Shown piece by piece: positions 3,108-60,730 of a stretch of 64,000 nt of DNA; position 1 is the stretch's first letter; each line of letters starts with the position of its first letter. A model generated the notes under the pieces. That model was not told where the DNA came from, did not search any database, and saw only the letters and a program-made list of their open reading frames with translations. The stretch is from a virus, in the IMG/VR virus record IMGVR_UViG_3300030012_001663, positions 31,397 to 95,396 of that record; one strand, 5' to 3'. Both the position numbers and the translations under genes were made by a program.

Positions 3108-3254
3108 TTATTCAATATTTAATGTTAATGTACATACTAATAAAAACAACCTTGCGGTTGTAAATGCATGCTTCTCATCAGGAAGAAAAAACTCCCATCC
3201 TAGAGCACACCTTTCATGAGGCCAATGAAAGGCTATTTCTAAATCCCAATTCAT
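3108..3254 (-). CDS. 48-aa beta-rich hydrophobic peptide (not in ORF track)
   Basis: MNWDLEIAFHWPHERCALGWEFFLPDEKHAFTTARLFLLVCTLTLNIE*. ATGA overlap with the upstream gene; fills the gap exactly. Confidence 0.65.
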   Translation of the reverse strand: MNWDLEIAFHWPHERCALGWEFFLPDEKHAFTTARLFLLVCTLTLNIE

Positions 3255-3385
3255 CTTCCTTGACCTCTATATTTCTTTTTGTAGTTCTTACTAAGCTTAT
3301 TAACTGATGTCTTTGTCTTAGCATGAACTCCTGGTCTCTTTTTCTTAGCGGGCTTAACGTAAGCTTTTAGTACTAATCTAGCCAT
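3251..3385 (-). CDS. 44-aa basic peptide ending YRGQGR (not in ORF track)
   Basis: MARLVLKAYVKPAKKKRPGVHAKTKTSVNKLSKNYKKKYRGQGR*. Overlaps neighbours on both sides (TAATG, ATGA). Confidence 0.75.
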   Translation of the reverse strand: MARLVLKAYVKPAKKKRPGVHAKTKTSVNKLSKNYKKKYRGQGR

Positions 3386-3633
3386 TACTTTTTCTTTCTT
3401 GGTCTACCTCTACGTTTTTTACCCTTAGCAGCATCTACTACATCACCAGCTTGATCAGCTACTTCTGAGATAGCATCTGCTACATCTTTCATTTCTTCTT
3501 TAACCCTCTTCACTCTTTGCTTAGTTGCTTTTACAACAGCAGTGGCTCTCTCATCAACTGTAGTCTTTGACCAGACCCAGTCCCATGCACTCTTTACAGA
3601 GGATTTAATTTGGTTTAATACTTTTTTAAACAT
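3385..3633 (-). CDS. Small helical protein with C-terminal AT-hook
   Basis: Amphipathic helices; ends KKRRGRPRKKK (RGRP core). Confidence 0.7.
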   Translation of the reverse strand: MFKKVLNQIKSSVKSAWDWVWSKTTVDERATAVVKATKQRVKRVKEEMKDVADAISEVADQAGDVVDAAKGKKRRGRPRKKK

Positions 3634-10734: not shown

Positions 10735-10865
10735 CCCCATCTCCAAGAAAGACAGAATACTATCATATAGAGATTGAACTCATTCCAATCATCTTCATGT
10801 TCTTTTGGCATATACTGTATTCCTACTAATGGTCCGTGTGCTAATGCTATTATTTTAAAATCCAT
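10731..10865 (-). CDS. 44-aa beta-rich hydrophobic peptide (not in ORF track)
   Basis: MDFKIIALAHGPLVGIQYMPKEHEDDWNEFNLYMIVFCLSWRWG*. TAATG-coupled to the 1913-aa gene; shares a CTAG stop palindrome with the convergent lipoprotein gene. Confidence 0.6.
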   Translation of the reverse strand: MDFKIIALAHGPLVGIQYMPKEHEDDWNEFNLYMIVFCLSWRWG

Positions 10866-13800
10866 TAATCTATATAAAAGTCTTGTCTCTTAAGGAAACC
10901 TTCCCATTTTTGTATGGTGTATAATGCAGGTATAGCATCAAACCATTCTTTTCTCATCTTGAGCATTCCTTTCTTAGGTCTATTCTGATAATATAACTGA
11001 GAGTTATTCATCATGTTATATCTCTCCATTGGAGATATTGTAAACCTAGCTTCATTATCTGTTGCTCTTGTTAAGAATGCTCCAGTGTTTGCAAGAGTAT
11101 ATCTTGTAGTTGCTTGTAGTGCTTCACCTATAGCTCCTAATGTTCTTGTTGATGCAATTGGATCACTAATCATTTCTCCCATTTGTACAAGACCATCTGG
11201 CACTACCGGCATAAACATTACAAGTTCACTGTAGGTTCTATCTGTTTGATAAATAGCCAAGTTCTTTAGTCTCTTAAGTGTTGGGTTATCATCATCGTCA
11301 TCATCAAATAATCCAAGGAGTATATTCTTAAGCATTAATGTTGCTAACACCATAGATATATCAGCCATGGTTCTTTGGAAACCAAATATTTTATTTTCTA
11401 TTTTCTGATCTACTTGCTCACTTACTTCACCATAACCTCTCTCCTTCATAAAGCCTTCTTTATATGTAGCTACATTTAAATTAAGCTTTCCAAGTTGTTT
11501 AGTTATATAGGCCATCATTTCCCACCATGACTTATATCTACCTTCCATCCATCCTAGATTCTCATCAAAGTATTCTCTCTGGAATCTTGCTCTGATAGCA
11601 GGTGCAACCCATTTGTGGAATTGTGCAAGAAGTTGTCCCAAGTTTCTTCTCTGGATAACCATTCTATCTTCTCTAGCATAGTTACCATGAATTTGCTTAT
11701 TAACTTCACGGATCTTCATTCTTGTATCAAACCTAAAGTTTTCTGTAAACTCTTTCTTTATTTCTTTAGGATTCTCTATTCCTTTTGTCTCAACAATAGT
11801 ATCATAACCTTCTTTTAGCTTTGCAGTTTGTGTTTTAGAATCAAACTCATAAGCATCAAAAAGATTAAGTCTTTCTCCTGTAGAACTGTTTTCTATTATA
11901 GTATCCATTAATAAAGCCATACCAACAGTAGTCTGTACTTTATATTCCGCTGCATCCTGTAATGAATAACCAAATGCTTTTATATTATCTAATGAGAAAA
12001 AGTTTGTGTTTAGAGCATCATTACCTTGTATATTCTCACGGATATCAGCATCTGCATCCATCATTTGAAATTGCATAGCTAATGCTTCCCATTTAGTCAT
12101 GGGTAATCTTGGGTCATATCTTTGCCCAGCACCTCTTGATGCAGCGTATGCTGTTCTTTTAATCATACTTTGTCCAATCTGACCTAAGTAAAATTCTTTA
12201 TTTGCTCTGAGATAGCTTGATCTAGTATAGAATCTACCACCTAATGCTTCTATTGTATTGTTGACAGATGCAATTGCTAAGTTGTTTAAGTTACCTATAG
12301 CGTTGAATGCTACATAAGATAAAGAAGAATATGATATTAATTGTTGAACTGCTTTATCTGCTACTGTTCTATTAATTTCATCTGAGTTGTAATAAACCAT
12401 TTTAAACCAAGCCTTGACTCTTTTTACAGTATTAGATTCTTCTTGTGTCTCTGAACCTTTTTTACCCACCATTCTAAGAGCAGCATTACCTACTGCATCA
12501 GCACCTTTTGATACAGCTCTTCTTAGAGTTCCTGTTTTAGTATCTGCATCATAATAAGTTCTATCTTCAACAATAGTTTTTATAGCTTTCAAAGTATCAC
12601 TTATATCATCCATCTGCTGATAGTTTTCAGCCATTGCTGTAAACTTAATTAAGCTATCAGCAAAGTCCATACTAATCTCATCAGCACCAGGTTTACCAAG
12701 AAGGGTTTGAACCTCAGCTTTTGCTATACCTATTTCTTTTTCATACTGATATTTTTTAATCTTACCTTGTTTGTATTGTAATTTTATAGCTTCAACTTTT
12801 TCTTCAGCAGCTTTTAGTTTTTTCTCATCTGCAGGTCTACCTACAAATAGTATAGGTAGAGAGTCAATTAAGTTTCCATTATCATCAACTGATACTCTTC
12901 TAAATTTACTAGTTGTTGAAAAACCTTTTTTGAGCCAGTCTGCTTTATTACGTATCCATGCTTCAAAACCTAATTTAGTTCCTGCTTGATTCTTAGCATG
13001 AGATATCATCTTACCTCTCACTAATGGTGCTCTACCTAACATCTGATCTCTAACAGCCATAGGTAGTTTTTTAAGCATATCATCATATCTCTCTGTATAT
13101 GCCATATAGAAATCTCTTTGTGCTCTACCCAGTGCATCTGTAGGATTCATTATCTTGTTATACTTTTCACTAGTCATAACTTTACCACTACGTGTGGTTT
13201 CTTTAGCTACTCTGTATTTTCTTTTTGGGTAGTAAGAAGTACCTGGAATAAGTCTACCAGTTGGTTCTCCATTCTTTTTTTCCATGAATAGAGCGTCTTC
13301 TTTCTGATCCTGATATTTTAATCTAAACTCTGCTTGCTCTTCTGGAGAAACACCGGGTTTAAATATCCAATATCCATGAGCACCTGATGGTACAAACGTT
13401 TGATATCTTGCTCTTATATCTTTCCACTCTTGTGTATATTCATGAAACTCTCCGTCTACAAGTTTACCGTCTTCTATAGTCTCTGCTCTCCAAAAATCAG
13501 CATATGCTTGTTTCTTTTGATATAAATCTAAGTTATGTTTAATATCAGCTGGGTCAGCTGTTTCTAGATCATCAATCATTACATACTCAATAGGATCACC
13601 ATTATCATACTTTAAAGCATCTCTAAGTCTATCCGCTTGCAAGTAATATTGTTGACCTAATTTTCTAATTGTAAGTCCTGTAAATCTACCATCCTCATCC
13701 ATTTCAGCCATAAACTCATAAATCTTTCTTGGATCTTGAGTACCTGTAAGTTTTGCTAGTCTATTACCCAGACTTCTAATTTCTGCATTTAATGCTTCAG

Positions 13801-16606
13801 CTCTTTCCTGTCCTCTAAGTCTGGCTCTACTCCATTCTTTTGCAATTAATGCTGATAAAGTATCAGGAGATGTAGCAAGATCTCTTGTTTCAAGATCCCA
13901 CCAAGTTATATCCTGCTCTTCTACTAACATTTTATTTAGTTCTTCTTCTGTAAAATCTCTATTAGAATTTTCTCTAACATATTCTCTTACATAGTCTATA
14001 ACAGCTTCTTTAATAAGTCCTGTCTCATAGTTATCTCCTTGAACTTCTCTTAGCTTTTGCTCTAATGTAAGTAATAGAGATGCCTCAGTCTTGTTTAGTA
14101 TACCACTATCTTTGATAGATTTTAAACCAAGGAATGTAGAAGCAAACTTGTCAAAGTTCAATGCATATGTAATAAACTCTTTCTTATTAAAGTTAGCTGG
14201 GTCTTTTATATAGTCAATAAAAGAATTAATTTCTTTAATAGAATCTCTAAGTAGGTTTGCATATACACTACCCATAAGTTGTGCATCACCTTCTAGCGGA
14301 TCTAATGCAAGTTCAATTGCAGCTATAGCATTATTTGTATATGTCAAAGCAACATCATTTGTCTTATCAACAAACAATTGCTTTTTATAATTTTCTATAG
14401 CTTCTCTTCTTTTCTTTAAATCTGTGTGATGATTTTTAAGAACAGTCTTAAGTGACTCATATCTATTATCATCAAACTGTGGACTAGTTGGATAATCAAC
14501 GTTGTCTTCTAAGAAGTTAAGATCATCTACAGGATTAAACATTTCTCCTTTAGATACATCTTGATCAATTTTTTCTTTGGCTACTGTATCTACGTTTAGT
14601 GGAATTAGCTTATCTACAATATGATTATTGTAAGATGGTTTATGTGTAACCATACCATCCATTCTATAAGAACCATTAAACTTTTGGTTAGTACCTTTAC
14701 CTGTAATATCTACATGTATATGAAAAGTTTGTGCACCATAGTCTGATTGATCTACAGTATAACCCATGTTCTCAAACATTCTTCTATACATGTTTACTTG
14801 AGCACCATGCTTACCCCTAGTAGATAACTTCTCTACACCTTTATCTTTTAGTAAGCTATCATCTTGTAAAGCCCACTCTCTTTTGTATTGTTCTTTTGCT
14901 GTGCTTGCATATGCAGTCTTACTGGTTTTAAGATCTATAATCTTTATCTCACCTGTTGGTGTAATACCAACAATATCTGCTGTACCAGCAATTTTTGTTT
15001 TCTTATCATATACAACAACCTGTGGTATAAATACTGTACCGTCAGCTTTTAATCCAGTTATAAATGCAGATAAGTCTGCAAAAGCTTTTTCTACTAATGC
15101 TTTATCATCTTTTAATACACTTTTAGAGTCTGCTTGCAAGTCTTGGAATACTTGGTCAAGGGTTTTATCTGAGAGAATACCATCTACTATAGAGTCAAAA
15201 TCATTACCTATTGCAATGTTTAGTGCAACTTCTTGCTCGTTAAACATCTTACCATTAATGGCTGTAGTAGCTGAAGTGTATTGATCATTAAGGTCTGTTA
15301 TATCATAGTATGTATGATTCTCTTCATTAAGTACAACTATACTATCACCCGTCTTTGTATCTTGTGGGCCTGCAGATAATGAATCTATTGTATCACTCTG
15401 CTTCATGGCAATATTAAAAAGCCTATCAATTATAGCTCTCTGTGCTGTATTAGCCTGAGCTTTGACATGGTTTACTATCTTTTGTAATCTATCAGATAGT
15501 GCATATCTTACTTTTCTATCTACAACCTTTTGTATTTCAAAAGTTATATCAGAGGTGTTAAGCATTCTTGCAATGTCTGACATTGTGGTGCTAGGTTTTA
15601 TCTGACTTGCTTTTAACACAGGTAAACCTGCATCTGTAACATACTTATGTAAGTCACTGATAATATTAAAGAACCATTTAATTATATCTGCTATCTTATC
15701 TAAGTAGCTTTTTGTAGGTGTATTCTCATACTCTTGTCTGAAATGTCTTACAAGTGCTTGAGTTACAAGCTCTAAGTTTCTGTGTGTTTCATTAAAACCA
15801 AGCTTGTCTTTGTATGATGCTTCTATCTGTTGTGCTAAGACAGGAAAGTTTTCTTTTGTCTCAGCTAACAATGAGTCAAATAACTCTGGGTTCTCTGCTT
15901 TGATTGCATCTACAAATGGGTGTAACACCTCTTCTACTGCTGTATTAGCATCTACTCTACCGTCTATAAGTACAGCTTTACCATTTACATAAAATGATTT
16001 TATATCATCAAACTTTACTTTTGACTTCTGCCCTGCTGGTAGAGAGTTATAATATTCTTTTGCTGCACTGACTGACATCACCTGAACATCTATCTGAGGA
16101 AACATTCTCTCAAGATGCACTATAATATCTGTAGTTTTTAAATCACCTCTTGTTTGTGGTAGGATATCTTGTATACTAAATAAATTATCTCTTACAATAA
16201 TCTTTGCTGATCTTGTTGTCTTTAAGATCTGTACTGTGTCTTGTGGAATATTATTTATCTCAAGATATCTTCTGATCTTTTTTATATTCTTATCTAGAAT
16301 ATTTTTATCTGCTACAAAACTCAGTCCGTCAGTTGCATTTACATAGTTGTAACCTTTATATTTTTTTGTAACAAGCTTCTTAGATATAAGATTAGAAATA
16401 ACAGACTCTGCAAACTCTCTCTTTCTTACTGATAGAGCAGTCTGGTTGTCATCAACAAAATCCATTGCTTCCTGTATAGAAGGTATAGTGTCTGTATTAT
16501 TAAGATCTTGATAAGCATTTATCAAGTTATCTGTAACAATATTAGACCCAAACTCTTCATAGAGTGCTTTGTATTCTGCTGTATTTCTATTTGGACACTT
16601 TGCCAT
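10865..16606 (-). CDS. Large ejected virion protein with degenerate zincin and PD-(D/E)XK/RecB-like nuclease domains
   Basis: 1913 aa, directly downstream of the RNAP gene. EEVLH (degenerate HExxH); IAGTADIV...IIDLKTS...QVNMY; C-terminal IHGNY...QFHKW region. Confidence 0.75.
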   Translation of the reverse strand: MAKCPNRNTAEYKALYEEFGSNIVTDNLINAYQDLNNTDTIPSIQEAMDFVDDNQTALSVRKREFAESVISNLISKKLVTKKYKGYNYVNATDGLSFVADKNILDKNIKKIRRYLEINNIPQDTVQILKTTRSAKIIVRDNLFSIQDILPQTRGDLKTTDIIVHLERMFPQIDVQVMSVSAAKEYYNSLPAGQKSKVKFDDIKSFYVNGKAVLIDGRVDANTAVEEVLHPFVDAIKAENPELFDSLLAETKENFPVLAQQIEASYKDKLGFNETHRNLELVTQALVRHFRQEYENTPTKSYLDKIADIIKWFFNIISDLHKYVTDAGLPVLKASQIKPSTTMSDIARMLNTSDITFEIQKVVDRKVRYALSDRLQKIVNHVKAQANTAQRAIIDRLFNIAMKQSDTIDSLSAGPQDTKTGDSIVVLNEENHTYYDITDLNDQYTSATTAINGKMFNEQEVALNIAIGNDFDSIVDGILSDKTLDQVFQDLQADSKSVLKDDKALVEKAFADLSAFITGLKADGTVFIPQVVVYDKKTKIAGTADIVGITPTGEIKIIDLKTSKTAYASTAKEQYKREWALQDDSLLKDKGVEKLSTRGKHGAQVNMYRRMFENMGYTVDQSDYGAQTFHIHVDITGKGTNQKFNGSYRMDGMVTHKPSYNNHIVDKLIPLNVDTVAKEKIDQDVSKGEMFNPVDDLNFLEDNVDYPTSPQFDDNRYESLKTVLKNHHTDLKKRREAIENYKKQLFVDKTNDVALTYTNNAIAAIELALDPLEGDAQLMGSVYANLLRDSIKEINSFIDYIKDPANFNKKEFITYALNFDKFASTFLGLKSIKDSGILNKTEASLLLTLEQKLREVQGDNYETGLIKEAVIDYVREYVRENSNRDFTEEELNKMLVEEQDITWWDLETRDLATSPDTLSALIAKEWSRARLRGQERAEALNAEIRSLGNRLAKLTGTQDPRKIYEFMAEMDEDGRFTGLTIRKLGQQYYLQADRLRDALKYDNGDPIEYVMIDDLETADPADIKHNLDLYQKKQAYADFWRAETIEDGKLVDGEFHEYTQEWKDIRARYQTFVPSGAHGYWIFKPGVSPEEQAEFRLKYQDQKEDALFMEKKNGEPTGRLIPGTSYYPKRKYRVAKETTRSGKVMTSEKYNKIMNPTDALGRAQRDFYMAYTERYDDMLKKLPMAVRDQMLGRAPLVRGKMISHAKNQAGTKLGFEAWIRNKADWLKKGFSTTSKFRRVSVDDNGNLIDSLPILFVGRPADEKKLKAAEEKVEAIKLQYKQGKIKKYQYEKEIGIAKAEVQTLLGKPGADEISMDFADSLIKFTAMAENYQQMDDISDTLKAIKTIVEDRTYYDADTKTGTLRRAVSKGADAVGNAALRMVGKKGSETQEESNTVKRVKAWFKMVYYNSDEINRTVADKAVQQLISYSSLSYVAFNAIGNLNNLAIASVNNTIEALGGRFYTRSSYLRANKEFYLGQIGQSMIKRTAYAASRGAGQRYDPRLPMTKWEALAMQFQMMDADADIRENIQGNDALNTNFFSLDNIKAFGYSLQDAAEYKVQTTVGMALLMDTIIENSSTGERLNLFDAYEFDSKTQTAKLKEGYDTIVETKGIENPKEIKKEFTENFRFDTRMKIREVNKQIHGNYAREDRMVIQRRNLGQLLAQFHKWVAPAIRARFQREYFDENLGWMEGRYKSWWEMMAYITKQLGKLNLNVATYKEGFMKERGYGEVSEQVDQKIENKIFGFQRTMADISMVLATLMLKNILLGLFDDDDDDNPTLKRLKNLAIYQTDRTYSELVMFMPVVPDGLVQMGEMISDPIASTRTLGAIGEALQATTRYTLANTGAFLTRATDNEARFTISPMERYNMMNNSQLYYQNRPKKGMLKMRKEWFDAIPALYTIQKWEGFLKRQDFYID

Positions 16607-16610
16607 GCTT

Positions 16611-19600
16611 TTATATTTTTAAGGTACACTTAATGTTTTCTAAGAAAGCATCATCACTTATACCAAATTTAAGGTTTTTTCTTTTCTTTAGGAAGTCATC
16701 AAAGCTATTTATATCTTCCTTATCTGCAAGTATTGCTAACCTATCATTGAAAGGACCTATGTTTTCATTCCAATAATTAGTCATCTTCTCAACATCCATT
16801 TCAGATCTTTTAGGTTTAAGCATAGCTTTTAATTTACTTGGAGTTTCTACATCATCTTCAACAGCAGTTCCTGTCTCAAACTCTTCTACTCCCTCTATCT
16901 GTTGCTCTGCTCTTTCAAGTGCTGTTGCTTGTGCTTTTGTAAGTTTAGATACAAACTTAGATATATTAGTATTATTTACTTGTACGTTAACACCATCAAA
17001 TGATATATCCTCTGCACCAGAAAAATAATTAGGATCATTTATTCCTGCAGCTCTTTCAAAGTCTTCTAGATCATTTTCTTTGTTCTTCTCTACTACTGTT
17101 TCAAATATTGTTTTACCAGTAGGTCTAGTAAACTCAACTGTATCAAACATAAACCCAATACCATTTTGACTTGTAGAACCTGTAGAGTTTACAATTAGAT
17201 AATTTGTTTTCTTGTTTACAATATTAATATCTTGTCTATCTCCTGTATCCTCTAGTTCATATAAAACTTTATTAATTCTAAGATACATTGGTGCTATATA
17301 ACCATTAGGAGTAATTTCAAATGCTTGTAGGTCTGAAGCTCTTGCACCCTCTGCAGCAAAATCTATAGTAAGACCTTTGTCATTTATGCTAATAACATTG
17401 CTACCGCTTGGCGGTGTATAAAGAGTTTTTACAAAAGACTGAGAAGAAGAAGACTTTAGGTATCCTTCTACAAACTCTTTAGTTAGTTCTTGTATGCTTT
17501 TACCAAATACATCTATAACTCTATTTGGATCATTTTTCTGAGATAAGAATTCTTTTGCAACTACTTCAGAGTTCTGAATAAATCTATCCATAACAAAAGG
17601 TGTGAGTGCTTCTAATAAAGAGCCTTCTGCAAATTGTAAACCATCTTTTACCATTACATAATGTAATATATGTATAGCATCTTCCTTAGTGTTTACCTCA
17701 CCATAAATTTTAGCAAAACCATTTTGTAGTTTTATTTTTTGATTATCACTTAGTCTAGCAAAAGTATTTGACACAGCTGTATTCAAACCTGTATTGTTAT
17801 TTGCATCTTTAAATGATCTGTTATACACAAAGAAATCTAAGAAGTAATTATCTTCATCTTTATATAACTTCTTTAATCTATCTACTACTACATTTATATT
17901 TTCATCTGTAATACTATTAGGATATATCATTGTGTTAGATAGTGATCCTGATCCTATTTTTGCTTCTGTATTTAGTAATTGATTTCTATAAGCTGTAATA
18001 GTTAAAAAAGATAATAAATCAGTAGATATTTTTCTTATATCATTTTCTCTTAGTTGTTTTGTGTTAAAACCAAGAGTAGCTAACATAACTTTAAAGTCTG
18101 TACTGTGTGTCATGAGGATGTTTGGTAATAATACATCCTTAAATTCTTTGTGTATTTTATAGTTTGTTGCATGGAAACTATCACCCTCAAAAATCTTTCT
18201 GACATCAAAAGGTACAGTCTTACCACCTTTTATTCTGTGTTGCTTGAACTCTTTGTTAGTTAGCCCTAATCCTAATTGACTTGCTGCACTTTCTTTACCA
18301 ACAATATCAGCTAAGTTCTTACCATGACCTTGCATTAAGTTAATAAGTGCAGTTGCATTAATACTGTGATTAGTTATAGTATTTACTTTTTGTAATACTC
18401 TAAGAATACCAACTGTTTGAGATTTTGTAACATCTTTATCATTTAAGGCTTTTAATAAAACACCATCTGTAACTTTAGCTGGCTTAGCTTTTAATTCTCG
18501 TATTCTAGCATTAATATTAAAATCTGATACACCTTCTTCTATTAATGCAACAACTTCAGGATTATTTACAAAATATATTGAAGTCTCAAGTGGTACACCT
18601 AAACTTACCATAGTAGTAACATAACCAAGAGCAGTTTTGTTAAGACCTAGCTTAGATGCTAATCTTTCTTTTGCATTATCAGTCATTGCTGTAATCAACT
18701 CAGATAATATATATTGTATTCTATCTCCTTTTTTATTCTGTCTATTATTCTCTAGTACGTAGTCTACACCAAATGTTTTAAATGTAGAATTATTTATACT
18801 AAAGTGATATTGTGGATCAAGCTTAATACCAAACTCAGCAAATAAACTATAATATAAGTTGGGTTTTACAACAACACCAATAGAGTCTGCACCTTCTTTA
18901 TTGTTTTTGAATGATAAAGTTTTACCAAGTAAACTATTTACATCTGTTTTAACATCTGCTGTTCTCTTAGCAAACTCTGGTGCATCTACTTCTAATGACT
19001 TTCTTATCTCTGTAAGTCTTGTAAGCCCTGTACCTTCATAAGATATAGCTACATTATTTTTACCATCTATATTTCTAGGTGTAGTTACAAAGTCATTACC
19101 AAGTAAAGCAAACTTATAATCTAGATCTTTGTTTGATAAAGCACCCGCATATGGTTCACCATAAGTTTCAACATAGGTATTATACTGTTCTAGTGTAATA
19201 GGCATACCAAGCATCTTGAGTGCTTTAATAGAGTCTAGTTCTAAACCTGATGTTCTTCCTATTGCAGTATTGTCATCATCAAGCTTGATAGTTTCTGATC
19301 CTTTGTTTCTTTTATCTAGCGCTTCTTTATAGATATTCTTACCCCTAGCTTTTATTTTACTATTAACGTATTCTACATAGTCTGCATAACCATTTGTACC
19401 ATACTCAACAAACTCATTACCTTTTTGATAAAACTCTTTAAAGTGTGTATATAGTTTATCAATATCAAAGTCAGCACCTGATATCTCTAATAAGTCTACA
19501 GGAAATACAGCAGTTGAGCCAAGATAAGTTGGTAAGAAATCTATCAACTTAAGATTAATAGCTGAGTGATTATCTTGAGAAGGTATACGTACACCATATG

Positions 19601-22600
19601 CTTTTGCAACAGCGTCTGGCATAGATGCATTTGTATTTTTTATTCCTGTCACTACTTCACTGTGGTGTGCAGGCATTAAAAACTCAGAATATCTTTGTCC
19701 TGTATATTTACCATTACTATCATATTCTTTCAATCCCATTCTTGGTTTATCAAGAACAATAACTCCTTGACCTTCTGATGCTTCTATAAGTCCAGCAAGT
19801 CCGTCCATATCTCTTGATATATCCAACACTGGTTTTTCATTACCAAATTGTTTGTGGTAAACATCTTCTCTAATAATTTCTTGTCTGTCTATATTACCGT
19901 TCTCATCTAAAGACAATACTCTTCTATACACTTTAACACCATAACCTGACATTAAAGCAAGAGATGTTCCTGGTAATTTATCAGCCATTACACTCTTACT
20001 GAAATATGCCATAAACAATTGCTCTGCTTTTGCAATAACATTAGGTGTGTTGAGACCATACTTCATAGAACCATCTTCATTTGTCATAAACTGTTCTATA
20101 ATATTAGAACTAGCTTGTGATGCTTTTAAAGATTCTGTTGCATACTGCAAGAAGTTATATAGATCTAACTGTAAATCAACACCAGGTTGTAATAACTCAT
20201 CTGACTTAACACCATCTAAATTATCAAAGTCAACTAGTAAGTTTCTTTTTTGTATATGACTAAGTAGTATCTTTTGTGAGTTGTTTTTATTGTACTGTTC
20301 TTTAATGTCTTTGACAGTAAACTCAGTACCATTTATAGTAACCTTTGTATTATCTTTTTGCTCTCCTGTAATTAATGTTTTCATCTGTGTAGGAGATGTT
20401 ATCTGCATTTTATTAGATGGATTTACTACCTGTAATCCCATAAAGTCTGTAGATAACTCAGTTACATTATTTTTATCTATTGCAGATGCACTAAATGCTT
20501 GGTCATGAGTCAATACATTCTGCTTTAACATCTTAAGAGCTGAGGTAGGAGCACTGAATATAACAGTTTCATTTGCTCTTTCATACTCTTCCATTTTAAT
20601 CCTCATATTATGAAGCTCTACCTTATTAGGTTTTGGAATAGTATATTCTCCATTTTCATCTTTAAGTGAAGTAAGCTCTGGTGTTAGTGCTACAGCTGAC
20701 ATTTTTATGTATGTACTACCATCAAAGTATACCAGCTTCATAGAGTTCATAACATGCTGGTCAGATACATAACCTCTTGTGTCTTCTGATCCAAAGAATT
20801 GATCTGCTGTCACCTCTTCACCTGATTGTACTTGATCATGTAATTGTGCAAAACCTTTATTGAGTCTACCCATACCAAAGTTAGAATATCTAGATCCTTT
20901 GGTTGTCATATAAACTTGTGCATCTGTTTCTTCTGATAACTTATCATCTGCCTTTCTTTGATACATAGGATCATTAAATGGCAGTACGCCAAAAGAACTA
21001 AGTTTGTGATTAATACCTAACTCAGGTGCAACAAAAGGCACAGTAATATTCTTATGTGCTGCATTTTGTCCTTTACCTCTTTTTACCTGATCTACTGCAT
21101 CTTTAAGAGTTCTACTCTCATCTCCAAGCAACAATTGATTGATTGCGGTAGTATTTAATTTATCATTAAAATATATCTGAGCTAAATTAAATGATGCATC
21201 TGATCTTTTTAAATTTAATTGTTCCATTGCTAAGTCTACGTCAGCATCTAATTTTCCTGACTTGTTTACTAAACCTGTAGCTGCAACTGGAATATCTGAA
21301 CCTAATACTCTAAGCTGAGCTATTGTATCTAAAAATTCATCAAACTCATTCATTAAATTAGTTTGTACATGATTGTACAACTTACCTTTTAGTGTTGTAA
21401 GTTTCTTAACTGCATCTTCAAAAGATAGTTCTCCTTTATTTGCTATCTCTTCTAGTTCTGTTGCTACTTCTTCTGATAGATAACCTCTAGATGTAAATAG
21501 CTTATATGCTCTACCGTTTTCATCTGAGTTATATCCTTCAATTCTATCTTGAGTAGGTTCAACAACTTCTTTTACAATTCTATTATATTCTTGTCTAAGT
21601 ATATCTACAAACTCATCTAGTACTGGTACAGCAATAGTCATATCAGAACCTGTTCCTTCAACAGCTTTGGTTACTGGTAATAGCATCATATCACCTGTAT
21701 TAGATGCTTCAAGCACTCTAATTAAAGATGGTGCAAGCGCAACCTTTTCTCCATTTACCTCTACTGTTTTGTTCTTAGAGTTACTAGTATTATATAGATA
21801 GGTATATGCATTAATAAGATTTACTAAAAACTCTTTGGCTGTTTGTTTTCCATATGTAGTAGAATCTTGTTTAACCAAACCACCGTCTCCAATGATCTGA
21901 CCTGCTTCACTTTGTTCTATACTTGCAACTCTTGAACCAGCTATTCTTAATATAGATATTTGATCTGTCTCAGATAATAAATTAAATGCATCTGATTTTA
22001 GCAAGTAGTTATTAGGATATTTCTCTTTAAGCTCTGCAATAAAATCACCATCATTCATTTGTACAGCCATCTTACTGTGGAATGTTGGTAACTGATGTAA
22101 GTAAACCTGGTTACCATCAGCATTTATATATGTACTAGCACCTACATTCTCATCAAACTGCTCATTTGCTATAGCCATTCTAATAAGTCTAGACTCCATG
22201 CCTTCAACACCTTTGTCAAAAATGTTACCTGACTTATCTTCTTTTAATGTAGCACTACTAACAATATCTCTAAATGTAACAAAGTCTTTAGATGACAATG
22301 GTTCTACATTTTGATATTGTTTTATAAATGTCTTTTGTGCTTTTGTAGGTTCTAGAATAGCTTTGCCTTCATTTGCCACAAGCATGCTGTACTTAATATA
22401 TCCTGTGCTAAGTAGTATACCTGTACTATTGTATAACTTTTCTCTAATAATCTCTGCCTCTTTAGATAAAGCTTTTTCAGAAATAGACTTTCTGCTTCTT
22501 GAAAGTTTACCTATTGCATAGTCAAACGTTTGTGTTGCTTGGCTCTTGCTAGATGCATTTCTTTTAATCTCATTTAGTTTTACATCATAAGCTGCTGACC

Positions 22601-25600
22601 ATATATTTATCTGTGATCTTGCAGCATCTCTTGAAGCAGCATCATATAAATAAGTTTTATTATTAGCCGGGTCTTTCTGTACAAATAGGTAGTTAAACCT
22701 GGAGTTTTGGAAAGACTTAATAACCTGTATCAAGAATGCAGGATTATTAACTTGTACTGGCATTTGTTTATTATCAACAAGCATTTGTACATCTTCTTGA
22801 CTCATACCAGCATCATTAAATAATCTATCAACAAATGCTTTTGTGTGCATATTGTCTTGGCCATAATTATATAATGCAAGTAATATGTCTTCTGGTGTAT
22901 TAAGATTCTTCACTGCTTTTAATGCACCATTATATACTCTATCTACATCTACTGGAACAATTAATCTTGCCCCTTCTTTTGTTACTTCACCTCCTACACC
23001 AATAGTTTGATCAACTATAAATTCATTACCAAATATATCTGTGTCTTCTACAGTAATAGTACCTATGTATTGTTTAATTTGTGTAGGTATATTAGAAGCA
23101 CCACCAATCAAACTAGCATCTTTATCCCACTCACTTACATCACGTAGCCCTAAGTTTTCTTCAATAACTTCATTTATATCTGCCTTCTTATCATACTGTA
23201 AGTCATAAAACTCTAATTGTTTTCTCACAGCTTGTATAATAGGGAATGAGCCAGGAGACTCTTCAAACATTAATGCTGTATTTATTTCTACAAGTTGGTC
23301 ATACAATTCATCAGATAATTCATTATATCTAGTTTGTTCTGGATCATAAAGCTCATAGTATTCATCATACATTTGATCTTCAACAGCCTGTAAAGTCATT
23401 TTAGGATTCTTTTCTTTTATTTGTAAGAATCTTGCCGCCATACTGCTGACTAGGAAAGTAGATATATTAGGATCAAGATATTCAAAATCTACAGTTCTTT
23501 CTCCTGCTATTTCTTTTATAGGTAAAAGTTTATATGCATCCAGAGTAACACCCTGATTAATCAACTCATCTGTATAAAGGTTATCTGTAGTACCTCTAGA
23601 TCTAAACTTACCTGCATCAATTGATTCATACAAGCTTTGTAGTTCATTTTTAGAATACTTACCAAATACAGATTTTATCCATGCAATAAATCTGTTAAAC
23701 AAAGATTTAATAAATGATGCTGTCTGAGTATCTTTTGGATTCTTTTTAAATAACTCAAACTGATCTGCCATATACTCTTCAAAGAACTCTTGCTCTAATC
23801 TCTTACGTGACATAGAACCATAGAGATCTGCAGAGTTTTTAAACTTCTGTATTTCTGTTTCAAAGTTCTTACCTTCTGATCTTAGTTTTGCTCTAAGTTC
23901 TTTTTCTGCTAAAGCTAAGTATTGTTTCTGCTCTTCTGGTGATAGTAACATTCTAAATACTGCATGGAAAGCTTCATGGTATCTAAACCCATGATCACCA
24001 ACGTATATAGTTCCGTTGATGTCTAAACCTCCTGCAAGAGAATCAAGAGCTAAAACAAATTTACCAACAGTGACTCCGTTTTCTTTTAGTCTGTTACCTA
24101 CTTCATTAATATCTTTTATAGTAATAAAGTTAGGTAGATTGTTTTCTGCCCATGACAAGAATGAATCAATCTTTTCAGTTTCTACTTCTGCAAACTCTGC
24201 AGGTAGTATTTTGTATGCACTAGAATTATTTAATTTTTTTCTAGCATTATCCACTTCTTTTTGTAAGCTTTGGTACTCTGTATTTTCATCAAGTGCTTTC
24301 TTTCTAGGTACACCGTCTTCTTTTGCCTGCTCATATATAGCTTTCTTAAGAGCATTGGCCTGTGCTTGTAGTTTATTAAACTCTTCTATCTGCTCTTGTC
24401 TTTCAGATACTTGTTCTGACTTAGCCGCTATTTCATCAAGCTTACCTATGTTAAGAGTTTCTTCCTTCTTAGTAGTCTCTTCTTTAACAACCTTTGTACT
24501 TATGATCTTGTCTTTATCAGCCTGTGTAGAGTCAACAGAAAAATGTAATTTTCTTTTTGGTTGTCTAAACTGTATAGTAGTATTAGTTTGATCTAATATC
24601 TCATCTACCGTAGCTGTTTCTGATATAGGCTCCTTAAAGCTTTCAGCACTAAGTGTATTATTTGGATTAACTTTATTGTATTCTGTAATTAAACTTGCAA
24701 GAACATCTGTTGCACCTGTCTCACCAATTGCACCATCTATAAGTTTTTGTATAGCATTTGCTTTGATCTCAACCTTTTTACCACCCATCATGTCTAATGT
24801 AATAGACCCATAAGGTGTAACCTGTACAGCTATTTGTGTACCTGCTTTACCAGCTAGATAGTAATCTGCCTTAATTTCTTTATTCCAATCTGTATTATAA
24901 GAATTAGATTTTACTTTACCTTTTTTATCTACATTTGATTTAGCTGTATCTAATGCTCTTTGTATAATTGTTTTAACAAAGTACTCTTGTATATCTTCTT
25001 TTGGATTTAGATTAAGTGGTGCTAGTTTAATAGTACCATCTGGTCTCTTCATCACTGCAGTGTAACCAGTTCTTAATGCTATCTTATATAAGTTATTATC
25101 CTTAAGATCTTTAACAACCTTATCATACAATGCTTGTGCTGCGTCAGAACCTTTTTCCAAACTACTCTCAAATGTTACAACTTGTTTGCCATTTACAGTT
25201 CTTCTAATTAATACAAACTTATTACCATCATAGGTATTGTTTTCTATTTCATTTACACTAACAGCTGGACCATTGTAATCAAAGCTTTCTCCTTGTATCT
25301 TTATATTAAGACCAAGATCTTTTAGTTCTGATATAGATACTGATGATTTACCATCTGCAAATAATTTATCAAATATTCTTACAACACTTCTAGAAGAGTT
25401 AAACTCACTTAAGATGTGGTTTCTATCTGCAAAGCCTTCAAACATATACTCTAAAGAAGACAAAGGATTATCATTGATGCTAAGTCTCTTGTTATCTTGA
25501 TTTACAAACAAGTATTGTCTATTAGGCATATACGCAACTGGTTGTCCTTCATAGGTTAGAGTAATAGTATACTTCTCATTTACTTTCTTTATAAATGGAT

Positions 25601-28600
25601 TCTCTAGTTTATCACCTATCTTCCAGCCTTTCTCTGGGACACTAACTGCAGGATTCTGTCCTATAGTTATTTCTAGATCATTGATATCTATTACATCAAT
25701 AAGATCTCTAAATCTTTTCTCAGCATCTTCTTTTGACTCACCGTCATTTCTATGAGCATATATACCAGTTAGTTCTCCTGGTCTTACTTTGCTATAGTTA
25801 GCTTTATTTTCAATAATCTTTTCTCTAAAGTTTACTTTGTCTTTAGTGTAGAGTTTAGCAAAGCCTACTTCTTGTACTAAAATGCTATCATCTCTCTTAG
25901 CATTAAAAGGTAGTAATGATATCTTGTTACCATCTACAAGACTTGTTGGTGATCCTAATATATAGAATCCTTGCCCTACAGAATTATAAACTACATCTCC
26001 TTCTTTTAGTTCTACACCATCAAAGACATATGTAGAAGTATCAGAGCCTTGTTTCATCAATGTCTTCCAATCAGCATGTGCTTTAGTCTGGCTTGTATAG
26101 ACACCAATGCTATTTAAATTTGCTTTTGTAAACATATAACCAGGCAATGACTTACCAAAGTTATCTGTAATTCTATAAGTTTTTTCTTTCTTACCGTTTA
26201 CTTCTGTAGTAACCTCTAGTATATTAATACCGGGTCCTTTTTGTACCCACTTTCTTGTTGGACTTTGTACTGTATCTAAACCTTCTTGACTCAAGTCTTG
26301 CTCTACTACATCTGCAATATTAACTGCACCTTTTGCTAAAATAGTTCTTACACCAACTTTACTAGAGTTTTGTGTTAACCATTCACCAAACTTGCTTTCA
26401 TCTACAGCTTCTTCTGTTGGTAAAGTTTCCATCCACATATTTCTAAGCTCTTGTAATGCATAGAATGCTTTTCTTGTAGACGCTAGATTTAACCACTCAG
26501 TTTCACTTATAGGCTGCTCACCAGTATTCAGGGTGTTAACTTTATACTTATCATATAACTTAGTTAAAGAAGACTCAAGACTACCTTGTATCTCATCCTT
26601 TTTTATTGGTGGAAGTTTTGATTCTTGTGCATCAATATTTTCAAAGGTTTGGGTGTCTTGAATTTCAGCTGCTTCCACATCAGGTTCAGCATTTTCTTCT
26701 TGAACATCTTCTTCTGTTTGAGCTTGCTGCTTGTATACTGATATGGCGTCCTGGATTTTTGCATACTTATCTGGATTTGTTTCTTCTGTAACTTGACCAG
26801 CTTCATCTTCAAAGTATTTTAATACAGATGCATCACCTGTAGTTAAGAAGTGCATTGCTGTTTGAGGATCAAGTACAACACCTAATTTATTCAGTTGGTT
26901 TAATAATGTATTCTTTTCTACATCATTAACAGATGCTTTAATAATTTTTCTGAATGTCTTTCTGCTATTCTTAAATATGTTAGCCATTATAGGCTCTATT
27001 CTTTCTGCTAGTTTATCTAGATTATCTGGATCTCTTAATATCTCAATTGCTTTGTCATAAGCTCTTGTTCTTTCTTTAAGAGTACCATAATCAAGAAGTA
27101 ATCTTAATGCCCTATCAACAGCTTCAGTATTTTTAAATGTACCTTTTTCTTCTGCTAATACATTAATATAATCTAAAAATGCTTTTCTTACTTTAACTAT
27201 ATTTTTTTTGCTTCTGCTAAACCTATCACCTTTTTTTGTTTGGTTCTCAGGTGCTGTAATTACATCATAGTAGTTCTGTAAAGCTTTAACTTTTTTCTTT
27301 TTGTTAGCTATATCTGTTCTAAAGTTACCTTTTGTATCTTTAAGAGTTTGTATTTCTTGCTCTAGTAAACTTATTTCTTTTTGTATTGTAGGTGCATCAG
27401 CAAGTACTTGTATATCATTAGCAGCACCTTCTGTAGCAAATATAGGTTCTGTTGCTAATTCATTATAAATACTAGTAGATCTTTCTAAAGCTCTTTGGAA
27501 ACCATCTTCAGTAAATAAATTCAAAAATCTAGCATGCTCATATGCTCTCCACTTAATCAATTCAAGAGTGTGCTCACGTGTACCTTTCTTAAACTTTTCT
27601 GGATTATATTTATTTTGATATTTATTTTTGTGGTTTCTATATCTTTTCTCTTGCTTCTCTATTCTATTGATAAGATTATTTAGTCTTTCTCTACGTTTAC
27701 CCGGTGTTTCTTCTTTAGCTCCTTCAGGGAAAGCTTCTATAAGTTCCTCATCAGATAACTGAGCAAGATCTCTTAATGCATCTGTGTAAAAATGAGTTCT
27801 ACCATTATCAAATAATGTCATAGAGTGTTGGAACTGTGCAAAATCTTTTGCGTCAAAGAAACCAAGAGGATCTCCTTCATAGTTGTATACATCCATTTCT
27901 TTGCTGGTATCATGCTGTACTGCAAAGTTTAATTTGTCTGGATTAAACTGACCATCAGGACTATCTAGCATTTCATTATAACCTTTGTTATACTGTTCTA
28001 CTAGTTTCTCTATGTATTCAGTCTTTTGTTTTTGGTATTCCTGAAACTGTGCTTTGTTTACAAAACGGTTATACATATTAGGCATACCCTGAAATAAAAT
28101 TCTTTGAGGTCCTTGTACTAATCCACCCATTAAGAAACCATGCATAAATGTTTCAAAACCTCTTGCTGACATTTGACTATCTACAGCTGAAGCAAACGCA
28201 TGATCCATTGCTTGATGATGTCCTGCAGATGGATGTTCTAGTATTTGAGAATAAAAGTCTTTCGTACCAACAGCAACTGCTTCTTGATAAACTTCTTGAA
28301 AACCTTCTGCAAAGTTAGCTGCAAAGTATCTTATAGCACCATGAGCACCTGCTCTAGCAGTACCACCTACTGTCCAAGACTTAATTCTTTTCATAGAAGG
28401 TAGACCAAGCCACCCTTCTCCTACATCTTCAAAAACATCTCTAGATGCTTTACCTACTGCATCTCTTAATGGTTTAGTTCTTAGTATCCTTCTACCATAG
28501 TTAGTAAGTTGCTCATTAAATATTCTACCTAATGAACCACCTCTACCACTTAATGCTTTTTGTAATACAAATTTATTTGTAAGCCATATAAATGGAGCAT

Positions 28601-29897: not shown

Positions 29898-32800
29898 TTA
29901 TTTTTGTTGGTTGTTAAGAAAATTTTGTTTTTTCTGAGTATTGATTACCATTCTATCTCTTAATTCTCTTCTATATGCTTGAATAATATAATCTATCTCA
30001 GCTGATGTTGCTGGTACTTTACCTGCTTCATCTATTGTTACAATCATAGGTGATATCTTATCATTTACCACAAAATCTTGTTTGTCATCACTCCAGCTTA
30101 CATAATTACCAGTCATCATAAAATTAGCGCCATCTTTATAGAAAGATAAAGAACCTCCAGCATCAACATCAAAGGTAACATTATTATCATCACTATATGT
30201 CATATCTATTTCATAATCTGAATAACCTCTACCAAAAGCATTTTCTACAGAGTATTGACTTTTATCAGACTCTTGAGGGAATATAATACTTAACTCACCT
30301 AATAGTCCTCTTAGTTCAGCTTCTGTTACACCTTGAGTTTCTGCATCATATTTACTTACAAATTGTTTTATGTAATCATCATCAAATTTAAGTACATATG
30401 CAGCATGAGTTTTATCCCCTTGATTTGGAGGGCCAGCTACCGGCATATATTCTATTTGAACTCTTGGGTTCTTGCCTTCTCCAGATTTATCTATTATAAA
30501 AGCTTGTATATCTTGAACAGCTTGCTCAAAAAACTTTTCTGCTACAGGTTCGTCTTTACCTAATTGGGCATTTGCTTCATCAGCATCAACTTGGCTTTCT
30601 GTTATATTCCCAAACTGAATAACTGCAGTACCTGAGTTAAATTGTTCTATAGCACCATTCAATAAAAATGCACCCTGTTGTGTTGGTGCTTTAGGGTTAA
30701 ATGTTGCATCATACCCTCTAAATTGTCTTGCAGAATCACCCGTCATTAAACTAGGAGAAACATTTTCTAAACCTTCAGCATAAGACCATCTTTGAAAAGG
30801 TGATTTAAAATCTGAATCTTTTTCTGTAGCATGAGTATTAATAGCGCCATTAAGCGTACCATTAATTAACATTTTTTGTTGATCATACTGTACTTTAGCA
30901 TCTTCTCTAGCTTTACCTATTTTAAAAAAATCTTTCTTAAGAATTAAACCATATCTATTATTTCGTCTAACCTCTTGAGCATAAGCATTATTACGGTCCT
31001 CACCATATAACTCATCCATTTCTTTTCTAGACATGGTTCTATTGTAAACATAGTTTTTGAAATCCTTGCTAAGCTCACCTGATTGAGCTCTTCTTACATA
31101 CTCATTTATAAAATCTTCTTCAGATAGTTTAACTACATTACCATTTGCATCTTTAGAAAAAATTCTAGGAACATTATATTTCTTTACATTATTTAAAATG
31201 TCTTTGCCATATTCTGTTTGGGCTGCAAACTCAAAATTGTTATAAGCTATCTCGTTCCCTTTATTAGTAAGCATAATAGATTTATTATCCTCTCTTCTTA
31301 TATCATCAGCTCTATCTCTGAAACCATCTTTTATTTGGTTTATTTTATCATTTTCTTCTTTGCTCCTTGATGTATTTGGATTTGAATTTTTCTCTAATAT
31401 AGTTGATGAGTATGTTTCAAATAATTCATTTGCTATTGCAGAATTTGCTGGATTGCTTAAAAATATTTGTGCCTCATTAATACTCATTGCACCTTGACCT
31501 GGTATTTCTATCACTGATGGTTTACCACCTTCTATATTAGATTGTATTTGTTGATGAGCATCTTTTATAAATTCAGCCTTAGATCTTTGATTTAAATTTA
31601 AATGTTTTTGTTTTGTTAACTCATCTTCTCCTATATTATCTCTAGTTAGACTTACAATATTATTATTTCTGTCTACCTCCATATCAACATTTGCAGCAGA
31701 CTTTCTACTAACACCTGGGATCATTGGGCCAATAAAAGGATTCTCCAATGATTTCTTATACTCTTCTAGTTGTGCTTTAAGTTCATATTCTTTATACATT
31801 TTATTCATATCCATTTTGTGCTTCTCTAAAGCTACACCGTATGGATTGGCTTTGATAGACTCCTTATAATCTATCATACTATATGACTTAGCTGCAGCCA
31901 TCATATCATCATTGATATTATACTGCATATTCATCATGAATGCTTTATTCATTAAGTCTTTATCTCTTGTACCTTGAGCTGATACAGCATTGTTTACAAT
32001 ATCTTCTCCTTGCTCTATCTCTTGTCTTATAGCTAAATATCTGCTTATAAAATCTTCACCTCTTTTACCATCAGGAGTATCAGCACCAATGTTGTATTTT
32101 TCATTATATTCTTTCCAAAGATCAGCTGATACTTTCATTACCTGAGCCTTTTTCTTTTTATCTTTTAGTAATGCTGCTGTGTTAGTGCTTATTTCTTCTA
32201 TAGTGGTATTAGCCCACATCTCCTCACCTTGAGCAACTGAAGCAACCTCTCCTGCTTCAAGTCTTGCATTAGCAAAGTTTCTTGCTTGTACTCTTGCGCT
32301 TGTTTTATATGCTTCTATAACTCTAGGATCATCCATAAGAGCTCTATTTAAATAAGCATATGCTTGATCTGTTACAAGTGCACCATTCTTTTGGGTTATA
32401 ATCCATCTACCTTTTTCGTCAAGTCTATCTATCTCAACGTTAAAGCCTTGTTCTTTTAATAAGGCAAGGGATGTTTCATATAAATTAGCATTAGGTACAT
32501 AGTTACCTATACCCATATTTAATGCTTCATCTGGACTTGCATTAATATAATCTTGCATTTGGATATTTAAATCCTGCACTCCAGTTTCCCAATAAAGATC
32601 TCTTTTAGCTTTGTCATTGCTATTCTTTAAAAACTCTGCATTCTTGATACCGTATTTAAAGTTAGCTGTGTTTGTAAGGTCTCTTATTATGGCATCATCT
32701 TCATAGAAAGGTTTAAATATACCCTTAGCCATATCTACATTTTGACGTAGAGATAAATCAAATCCAGATACTTGCTCCATCTTTGGTGCAATCTGTTGTG

Positions 32801-33002
32801 CAAACTGATCTCTCTTTTCCTTATTATCATCTCTACTTAGATCAGCATATACAACTTTGCTATAAGCATCATTAAGTGCCTGATAATTTGTATCATATCT
32901 GTTCTGTCTTGTTTCTAAGACTGTAGATAAAAACTTATAATCAGGTACAAAAGGCTTAGCCTCTCTGTCGTACATTTGATATCCTTGAACGTATGTTGCC
33001 AT
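29898..33002 (-). CDS. Internal virion/ejection (cargo) protein
   Basis: 1034 aa, helical, no Cys seen. Lies between the cargo genes and the RNAP as in crAss-like genomes. Confidence 0.6.
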   Translation of the reverse strand: MATYVQGYQMYDREAKPFVPDYKFLSTVLETRQNRYDTNYQALNDAYSKVVYADLSRDDNKEKRDQFAQQIAPKMEQVSGFDLSLRQNVDMAKGIFKPFYEDDAIIRDLTNTANFKYGIKNAEFLKNSNDKAKRDLYWETGVQDLNIQMQDYINASPDEALNMGIGNYVPNANLYETSLALLKEQGFNVEIDRLDEKGRWIITQKNGALVTDQAYAYLNRALMDDPRVIEAYKTSARVQARNFANARLEAGEVASVAQGEEMWANTTIEEISTNTAALLKDKKKKAQVMKVSADLWKEYNEKYNIGADTPDGKRGEDFISRYLAIRQEIEQGEDIVNNAVSAQGTRDKDLMNKAFMMNMQYNINDDMMAAAKSYSMIDYKESIKANPYGVALEKHKMDMNKMYKEYELKAQLEEYKKSLENPFIGPMIPGVSRKSAANVDMEVDRNNNIVSLTRDNIGEDELTKQKHLNLNQRSKAEFIKDAHQQIQSNIEGGKPSVIEIPGQGAMSINEAQIFLSNPANSAIANELFETYSSTILEKNSNPNTSRSKEENDKINQIKDGFRDRADDIRREDNKSIMLTNKGNEIAYNNFEFAAQTEYGKDILNNVKKYNVPRIFSKDANGNVVKLSEEDFINEYVRRAQSGELSKDFKNYVYNRTMSRKEMDELYGEDRNNAYAQEVRRNNRYGLILKKDFFKIGKAREDAKVQYDQQKMLINGTLNGAINTHATEKDSDFKSPFQRWSYAEGLENVSPSLMTGDSARQFRGYDATFNPKAPTQQGAFLLNGAIEQFNSGTAVIQFGNITESQVDADEANAQLGKDEPVAEKFFEQAVQDIQAFIIDKSGEGKNPRVQIEYMPVAGPPNQGDKTHAAYVLKFDDDYIKQFVSKYDAETQGVTEAELRGLLGELSIIFPQESDKSQYSVENAFGRGYSDYEIDMTYSDDNNVTFDVDAGGSLSFYKDGANFMMTGNYVSWSDDKQDFVVNDKISPMIVTIDEAGKVPATSAEIDYIIQAYRRELRDRMVINTQKKQNFLNNQQK

Positions 33003-60576: not shown

Positions 60577-60730
60577 TCTGTAATTCTTGTATTTTGCTAT
60601 TAGCTTCTGCTAATCCAATTTTTAATAATATAATAAGCTGATCATCTTCATTTCTTTCTATTTCTATTTGAAGATCCTCTTCTCTATCAGCTTTAATTTT
60701 TTCCCAATATTCTAAACTATCTGCTTCCAT
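60569..60730 (-). CDS. 53-aa acidic helical peptide (not in ORF track)
   Basis: MEADSLEYWEKIKADREEDLQIEIERNEDDQLIILLKIGLAEANSKIQELQNG*. Overlaps both neighbours. Confidence 0.65.
   Translation of the reverse strand: MEADSLEYWEKIKADREEDLQIEIERNEDDQLIILLKIGLAEANSKIQELQNG

Follow-up and report, generated by a model that had tools for sequence, protein, structure and literature searches.

Lone cysteines at the facing ends of two giant phage proteins: a candidate head-to-tail disulfide

Two adjacent giant genes in the virus record IMGVR_UViG_3300030012_001663 of IMG/VR encode proteins that each contain a single cysteine (Cys), placed at the ends that face each other. The stretch analysed here, referred to as the window, comprises 64,000 nucleotides (nt) of this 95-kb virus record and carries its late genes on the minus strand. 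The product of the upstream gene was designated gpA and consists of 4426 amino acids (aa), with C4422 as its sole Cys. The product of the downstream gene, gpB, consists of 1913 aa, with C4 as its sole Cys. We propose, with a probability of about 0.65, that C4422 of gpA and C4 of gpB form an intermolecular disulfide that joins the two proteins head to tail in the virion. Conservation of the Cys pair in relatives points to such an end-to-end disulfide. The pair also follows the gene architecture across Crassvirales and has a structurally resolved precedent in a cyanophage.

Cysteine census and identity of gpA and gpB

Every open reading frame (ORF) of at least 150 aa in the window was translated and its Cys residues were counted. 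A preliminary description of this DNA had claimed that gpA and gpB hold one Cys each, that two neighbouring cargo-type proteins of 1034 and 832 aa are Cys-free, and that the outer structural proteins are Cys-rich. The recount agreed on all three points: no internal Cys was found in gpA or gpB, both cargo-type proteins had 0 Cys, and single tail or structural ORFs reached 5.5% Cys. The background in the other ORFs was 136 Cys in 11,220 codons (1.2%). At this rate, gpA and gpB together should contain about 77 Cys; 2 were observed (Poisson P(≤2) of about 1e-30). Two lone Cys would lie so near the facing ends by chance with a probability of about 2.4e-6. Chance is excluded as the origin of the Cys pair. 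An in-frame stop precedes the ATG of gpB, and no other possible start lies between them. Because of this, and because relatives hardly vary in the first 15 residues, C4 of gpB is translated. A 1061-aa ORF of the structural block was also Cys-free and gave a sub-threshold fn3 match near its C-terminus (Table 1).

We then assigned the two proteins by homology. The DFDID catalytic motif of the crAss-type two-barrel RNA polymerase (RNAP) was found in gpA, and phi14:2 gp66 holds the same motif as 1361-DFDID-1365. In tblastn comparisons, residues 3250-3750 of gpA matched the annotated RNAPs of crAss001, phi14:2, and p-crAssphage. BLAST aligned crAss001 gp50 to gpA 3141-3487 (E 5e-13), the end of crAss001 gp47 to gpA 1912-2096, and crAss001 gp49 to gpB 1308-1714 (E 4e-23). 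The modules follow the cargo genes in the order A-B-C, as in the RNAP cargo block of Crassvirales. By these similarities, gpA is a fusion of module A (crAss001 gp47-like) and module B (the virion RNAP), and gpB is module C, a cargo protein like crAss001 gp49 or phi14:2 gp076. The preliminary description, which called gpA the RNAP protein, had missed the fusion of modules A and B, which are separate and Cys-tipped in phi14:2 and crAss001. By analogy with phi14:2 and crAss001, gpA and gpB of this uncultured marine crAss-like phage are most likely packaged in the virion and injected into the host. Sequence searches of gpA and gpB against PHROG, Pfam, and PDB returned no family. The junction and the last 600 aa of gpA had no match among GenBank phages by blastn or tblastn, and a first IMG/VR scan with the gpA tail gave no match.

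Two further regions of gpB were noted. Around residues 540-562, a PD-(D/E)xK nuclease-like motif coincides with invariant columns, and several homologues match PF12705 (PDDEXK_1), so that gpB may carry an injected nuclease domain. Residues 1658-1854 of crAss001 gp47 align to gpB 427-617, which would place the nuclease-like domain in a different module in that phage. The AlphaFold model of gpB 154-326 weakly resembled zincin and anthrax lethal-factor N-domain folds, with matches (Z 6-7.3, root-mean-square deviation of about 4, 140-163 residues aligned) that fall within the noise range.

Conservation of the Cys pair and its relation to gene fusion

Both Cys residues were present in all 52 IMG/VR loci that were 34-60% identical to the gpB N-terminus. 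The downstream protein contained exactly one Cys, at position 3 or 4, in each of them (52/52), and the upstream ORF had a Cys 2-5 residues before its end, also in 52/52. This upstream Cys was the sole one, as far as the locus extends, in 50 loci; the other 2 had a short upstream reading frame. One pattern used in the IMG/VR scan adjoins the Cys, and the analysis was repeated with homologues found via internal regions, which makes the sampling unbiased for the termini. A single Cys, 2-6 residues before the end, was found in 116 of 120 gpA homologues (4200-5860 aa). Similarly, 116 of 120 gpB homologues had a single Cys at position 3-5, and 119 of 120 had a Cys within the first 8 residues. Co-conservation of the terminal Cys, by which the preliminary description proposed to judge the pair, was therefore borne out in homologues and loci alike. 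Ala, Ser, and Val never occurred at the junction-Cys positions in more than 230 homologues.

The exceptions were then inspected. Three gpA homologues without the terminal Cys (P0106, P0057, and P0008) differ from relatives that are 89-99% identical only in the last 75 or so residues, and look like frameshifted or chimeric gene calls. The gpB exception P0237 is N-terminally truncated. True loss of the Cys was rejected for these four on the grounds of the tail-only divergence and the truncation, respectively. Within the last 250 aa of the gpA homologues, where mean column identity was 24%, the Cys and a single other position were conserved at 90% or above. In the alignment of the gpB N-terminal arm, the invariant positions were M1, C4, N6, N8, T9, A10, E11, Y12, and L15.

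Five near-complete relatives showed a Cys-free gpA N-terminus, Cys-free gpA N-terminal halves, and a Cys-free 1034-aa protein. A third candidate for a conserved lone Cys, C212 of a 416-aa protein in the window, was rejected since it was not kept in these five relatives. Neither the 416-aa nor the 1034-aa protein gave a match when used as a scan query. Homologues of the 832-aa protein were Cys-free in some relatives and contained clusters of 4-8 inserted Cys in others, with paired spacings of 2-10 residues; the insert looks like a variable metal-binding or disulfide-bearing element. Some relatives came from Tara Oceans data, and the clade is therefore at least partly marine.

The spacer between the two genes ranged from 2 to 34 nt among the IMG/VR relatives, and the reading frames varied, so that just some of the loci were in frame. 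Fusion of gpA and gpB by readthrough or frameshifting was rejected for this reason. At the junction in one relative (L002/L047), both giant ORFs lie in frame and are split by one TAA and one sense codon. Since other relatives use other frames, we do not read this arrangement as programmed readthrough.

We next compared 12 reference Crassvirales from three families, which together with the window phage gave 13 genomes. In phi14:2, the sole Cys of the first protein of the block (1797 aa) is the final residue; C3 and C2179 are the only Cys of the RNAP (2180 aa), and C3 is the only one of the third protein (1421 aa). In crAss001, gp47 has C2339 of 2341 residues, gp50 has C5 and C2404 of 2412 together with one internal Cys, and gp49 has C5. 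The gene for crAss001 gp47 lies on the opposite strand from that for gp50 and its product still keeps the C-terminal Cys, which indicates that the constraint acts on the protein and not on the DNA junction. Module A is separate and modules B and C are fused in p-crAssphage, cr8_1, Rudgehvirus, and cr110_1, and Cys residues stand on both sides of the break. Modules A and B are fused and module C is separate in cr118_1, cr125_1, cr114_1, cr109_1, cr50_1, and cr7_1, again with Cys on both sides of the break. For cr110_1, gp40 was counted from Met15 instead of the annotated start; that start is probably 14 codons too far upstream, and Met15-Ser-Cys matches the N-terminus of p-crAssphage gp44. Over the 13 genomes, a Cys lay within 9 residues of the end in 30 of 30 junction-facing termini and in 0 of 26 free termini (Fisher p of about 1.5e-16, phylogeny ignored).

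The fused junctions behaved differently from the split ones. No Cys marks the A-B fusion in gpA, while the corresponding break in phi14:2 and crAss001 is flanked by Cys on both sides. The six gut AB fusions lacked Cys around the mapped junction. In these fusions, a conserved Cys at about residues 2018-2041 was considered as a vestige of the junction and rejected, as it maps inside module B. In the Rudgehvirus BC fusion, no Cys was found from residue 1802 to the end, and the other BC fusions, in which the junctions could be placed only roughly, had no closely spaced Cys pair. The preliminary description had suggested looking for the pair in adjacent giant genes across Crassvirales and for its loss upon fusion. 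The pair was present at every split junction in the 12 reference genomes and absent wherever a fused junction could be located. A search for longer proteins with gpB found no single ABC polyprotein, which is weak evidence.

The codons of the junction Cys allowed us to consider another origin of the pattern, in which TGT is a by-product of a nucleotide signal at the junction, such as an element for translational coupling or regulation. All 64 of 64 junction Cys codons in the window and 32 IMG/VR loci were TGT, compared with 87.5% elsewhere in the window, and AAGTGT occurs on both sides of the window junction. However, spacer length, reading frame, and the distance from Cys to the end all vary, the DNA around the junction is not conserved, and crAss001 gp47 contradicts such a signal by keeping its Cys on the other strand and away from gp50. 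The uniform use of TGT may reflect only shared ancestry and AT-rich genomes. A nucleotide element is thus highly improbable as the source of the pair.

Two further observations concern gut phages. In p-crAssphage, the cargo-type protein gp47 has a single Cys at 856 of 857, and in Rudgehvirus the cargo-type product of gene49 has a single Cys at 747 of 757. In neither case did the neighbouring gene show an N-terminal Cys as a partner. This Cys may provide a further link or a homodimer in Intestiviridae. In several gut crassviruses, genes for thioredoxin-like proteins lie just past the RNAP block on the opposite strand, and their products could act on cargo thiols or in nucleotide metabolism.

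The proposed disulfide and its alternatives

The pattern found in the window has a counterpart of known structure. In the cryo-electron microscopy (cryo-EM) structure of cyanopodophage A4 (Anabaena phage A-4L), Cys1715 of gp27 forms a disulfide with Cys5 of gp26 (PNAS 2025, PMC12002296). The C-terminal helix of gp27 inserts into gp26 and is stabilised by this bond (PMC12002296). We found in the A-4L genome (NC_024358) that Cys1715 is the sole Cys of gp27 (1717 aa) and that Cys5 is the sole Cys of the adjacent gp26 (1114 aa). The signature of lone terminal Cys thus corresponds to a real disulfide in A4. The window matches it, with C4422 of 4426 residues upstream and C4 of 1913, within the first five residues, downstream. 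The same lone terminal pair was found in Leptolyngbya phage Lbo-JY46 (PP438436), an unclassified 125-kb cyanophage, in which a 1552-aa protein with its sole Cys as the last residue is followed by a 2748-aa protein with C4 as its sole Cys. Lbo-JY46 also contains a domain weakly similar to gpB 161-319 (E 5e-6), and the phage could link the crAss and cyanophage cases.

The two ends were also co-folded, as the preliminary description had advised. A model of the C-terminal 250 aa of gpA together with the N-terminal 500 aa of gpB scored 0.41, and the best of three controls scored 0.00. The runs agreed in at least 33% of contacts, and the predicted local distance difference test (pLDDT) score of the partner was at least 48. 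In the calibration, 58 of 80 solved complexes passed the threshold, as did 2 of 110 mismatched pairs; the passes at 0.60 or below comprised only 7 of the 80 solved complexes and both of the mismatches. The co-fold was run on alignments built for this analysis, for which these calibration counts hold only roughly. The score stood above its controls; the pass was of the weak class and named no contacts.

A role for the two Cys without any bond was also considered, in which each serves as a packing residue of a docking motif, as a thiol redox sensor, or as another site of modification. The flanking motifs are conserved as well, and the co-fold weakly supports docking as such. It would be odd, however, for a Cys to be retained for packing alone where Cys is otherwise purged from thousands of residues, and the complete lack of Ala, Ser, and Val substitutes does not fit such a role. 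We regard it as quite unlikely.

In the mechanism proposed here, selection would have purged Cys from about 8200 cargo residues, sparing one at the C-terminal end of gpA and one at the N-terminal end of gpB. The gpA tail would dock on the N-terminal region of gpB. The two thiols would then oxidise in the assembled extracellular virion to give one intermolecular disulfide, which would link gpA and gpB covalently into one nearly linear chain. Between fused neighbours, the peptide bond would do the work of the disulfide. As each Cys lies a few residues from the end, only short side stubs would remain, and the joined chain could thread a narrow tail channel. The reducing cytoplasm of the host would cut the link and free the RNAP protein. 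The bond in the lineage of the window phage, the ordered ejection, and the reductive release are what we infer. Inter-protein disulfides occur in the tail and portal vertex of crAss001 virions, and the crAss001 cargo must partly unfold past constrictions of less than 50 angstroms (PMC10172136). The statement in the preliminary description that crAss-like cargo passes the tail unfolded agrees with this report, in which the cargo is thought to be partly unfolded in transit. The intermolecular disulfide itself, also proposed there, is partly supported: it passed the in silico tests of census, conservation, split or fused architecture, and A4 signature, and the co-fold gave it weak support.

Several points weigh against a gpA-gpB disulfide. 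The cargo is unresolved in the crAss001 maps (PMC10172136), and no cargo-protein disulfide has been observed in any crAss-like phage. The cytoplasm in which gpA and gpB fold is reducing. The RNAP-block proteins of gut crassviruses tolerate 3-15 internal Cys, which makes the pairing ambiguous there. The homologue and locus counts are not phylogenetically independent. The co-fold lends weak support, as passes of this class are mostly wrong when the guess was not already likely. In addition, no homology in sequence or fold was detected between gpA or gpB and A4 gp27 or gp26: BLAST gave E values of at least 0.13, and no A4 chain turned up when the model of the gpB N-terminal region (mean pLDDT 65) was compared with known folds. 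For this model, Foldseek returned no match at E ≤0.001, and the resemblance to zincin or lethal-factor-like domains reached a Z of 7.3 at most. The A4 precedent is accordingly an analogy and not a demonstrated case of common descent.

A metal clasp was considered as an alternative. The two thiols, perhaps from several copies, could coordinate a metal ion in a zinc clasp or hook-like site, possibly before packaging, in the reducing cytoplasm where the proteins assemble. The conservation data fit any thiol-based link between termini, and the four junction Cys of the three-protein phages equal the number needed for a tetrahedral site. Two-protein phages such as that of the window, however, have just one Cys to offer from each partner, neither a His nor another Cys is conserved close by in the gpA and gpB alignments, and the identical signature was modelled as a disulfide in the cryo-EM density of A4 (PMC12002296). 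A metal clasp thus seems unlikely.

Each terminal Cys might instead bond elsewhere, in an A-A or C-C homodimer or with a portal, capsid, or tail protein. In favour of this, the outer virion proteins are Cys-rich and crAss001 has many inter-protein disulfides (PMC10172136), and p-crAssphage gp47 and its Rudgehvirus counterpart have a lone C-terminal Cys without an obvious N-terminal partner. Other partners would leave unexplained why Cys occurs only at the module-facing ends, with one at each end of the middle protein, and why both Cys are lost together where modules are fused. The pairing resolved in A4 is also that of a C-terminus with the N-terminus of its neighbour (PMC12002296). We consider such partners improbable.

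The head-to-tail disulfide may extend beyond the window phage. Covalent continuity of the injected train could be a general rule in crAss-like and some cyanobacterial phages, provided by the peptide bond where genes are fused and by a disulfide where they are split, so that one ordered, RNAP-containing thread is injected and then freed by host thiol reductants. This wider proposal is tentative, and we place it somewhat short of even odds.

Table 1. Positions of the features described in the window and in related loci.
Feature	Position	Strand	Remarks
gpA	16611-29891	minus	4426 aa; sole Cys C4422, five residues before the stop
C4422 codon (TGT)	16626-16628	minus	lone Cys of gpA
gpA C-terminal tail, last 14 residues	16614-16655	minus	acidic-hydrophobic, helix-like; ends in K-C and a stub of 1-4 residues
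gpB	10865-16606	minus	1913 aa; sole Cys C4
C4 codon (TGT)	16595-16597	minus	lone Cys of gpB
gpB N-terminal arm, residues 1-15	16562-16606	minus	modelled as coil, then helix 10-19
Spacer between gpA stop and gpB start	16607-16610		4 nt; the two genes are in different frames
DFDID catalytic motif, crAss-type two-barrel RNAP	19458-19472	minus	gpA residues 3474-3478
Approximate A-B fusion point in gpA, residues ~2100-2150	23442-23594	minus	no Cys; from BLAST mapping
PD-(D/E)xK nuclease-like motif, gpB ~540-562	14921-14989	minus	invariant columns
Zincin/lethal-factor-like region, gpB 154-326	~15629-16147	minus	weak fold resemblance of the model
1034-aa cargo-type protein	29898-33002	minus	upstream of gpA; Cys-free
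832-aa cargo-type protein	33061-35559	minus	Cys-free
1061-aa structural-block ORF	60730-63915	minus	Cys-free
832-aa homologues with Cys clusters	L077 5155-7998; L079 2073-7427; L080 2846-7600		coordinates on the reverse complement of each locus
In-frame junction	L002 5992-6003		relative L002/L047
Lbo-JY46 protein pair	L066 3948-16854
cr110_1 gp40 start region	L070 10639-10683
p-crAssphage gp47	L060 4772-7345
Rudgehvirus gene49	L064 4522-6795
Thioredoxin-like genes	L060 30162-30440, 31160-31429; L063 30153-30422; L064 29812-30087	opposite strand	just past the RNAP block

Significance and comparison with known phage systems

The cargo of crassviruses amounts to several megadaltons, includes the polymerase that starts infection, and is invisible in the crAss001 maps. 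A signature of one residue per module boundary offers a directly testable hypothesis of its organisation. The hypothesis says which termini should be in contact, in what order the chain should run, and that release should depend on redox state. The Cys rule would explain why split and fused architectures interchange freely in Crassvirales. If the RNAP does enter as one ordered thread and is cut loose by host reductants, this would be a redox switch that marks arrival in the cytoplasm and possibly aids RNAP activation. Lone Cys at two facing termini of otherwise Cys-free giants may also serve as a sequence marker of ejected chains in uncultured phages. Reduced and non-reduced mass-spectrometry data for crAss001 virions exist (PMC10172136), and phi14:2 is available in culture. 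The literature searched contained no account of terminal Cys or a cargo disulfide in Crassvirales, and the structure papers on the phi14:2 RNAP and on crAss001 (PMC10172136 for the latter) mention neither. The type of bond is already known from A4; no description of the order-wide Cys rule, or of the way it covaries with gene fusion, turned up in the literature searched.

Cyanophage A4 resembles the window phage in that adjacent genes encode large internal or ejection proteins, of which the upstream one has its sole Cys three residues from the C-terminus and the downstream one has its sole Cys at position 5. At 1717 and 1114 aa, the A4 proteins are smaller; they lack an RNAP and are arranged as a five-fold ring about the portal axis, and the bond was reported as a structural detail and not as a general rule (PMC12002296).

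Schitoviridae also have giant virion RNAP or ejection proteins in which Cys is suppressed, such as N4 gp50 and DEV gp71-gp73. N4 gp50, the injected RNAP that the preliminary description had cited as Cys-free, and DEV gp71 indeed have no Cys (PMC11445570). Suppression of Cys is conserved in the ejection proteins of this family and was attributed to passage through the periplasm (PMC11445570). Complete absence of Cys, as in Schitoviridae, was found here in the 1034-aa and 832-aa proteins, whereas gpA and gpB each keep one Cys at the facing terminus. The polymerases are of unrelated types, T7-like in Schitoviridae and two-barrel in the window phage.

A further comparison is with phi14:2 (GenBank gp078-gp077-gp076, of which gp077 is the 2180-aa RNAP named gp66 in the structure paper) and crAss001 (gp47, gp50, and gp49). 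These phages have homologous modules A, B, and C and follow the same terminal-Cys rule at each junction. Their RNAP-block proteins are packaged in virions and translocated into the host (PMC10172136 for crAss001). They have three separate proteins and two candidate links, whereas in the window phage modules A and B are fused and one link is left. Fused crAss polyproteins, such as p-crAssphage gp44 and the AB proteins of Suoliviridae, contain the same modules, with a peptide bond in the place of the proposed disulfide, and according to the literature these RNAP polyproteins may be cleaved.

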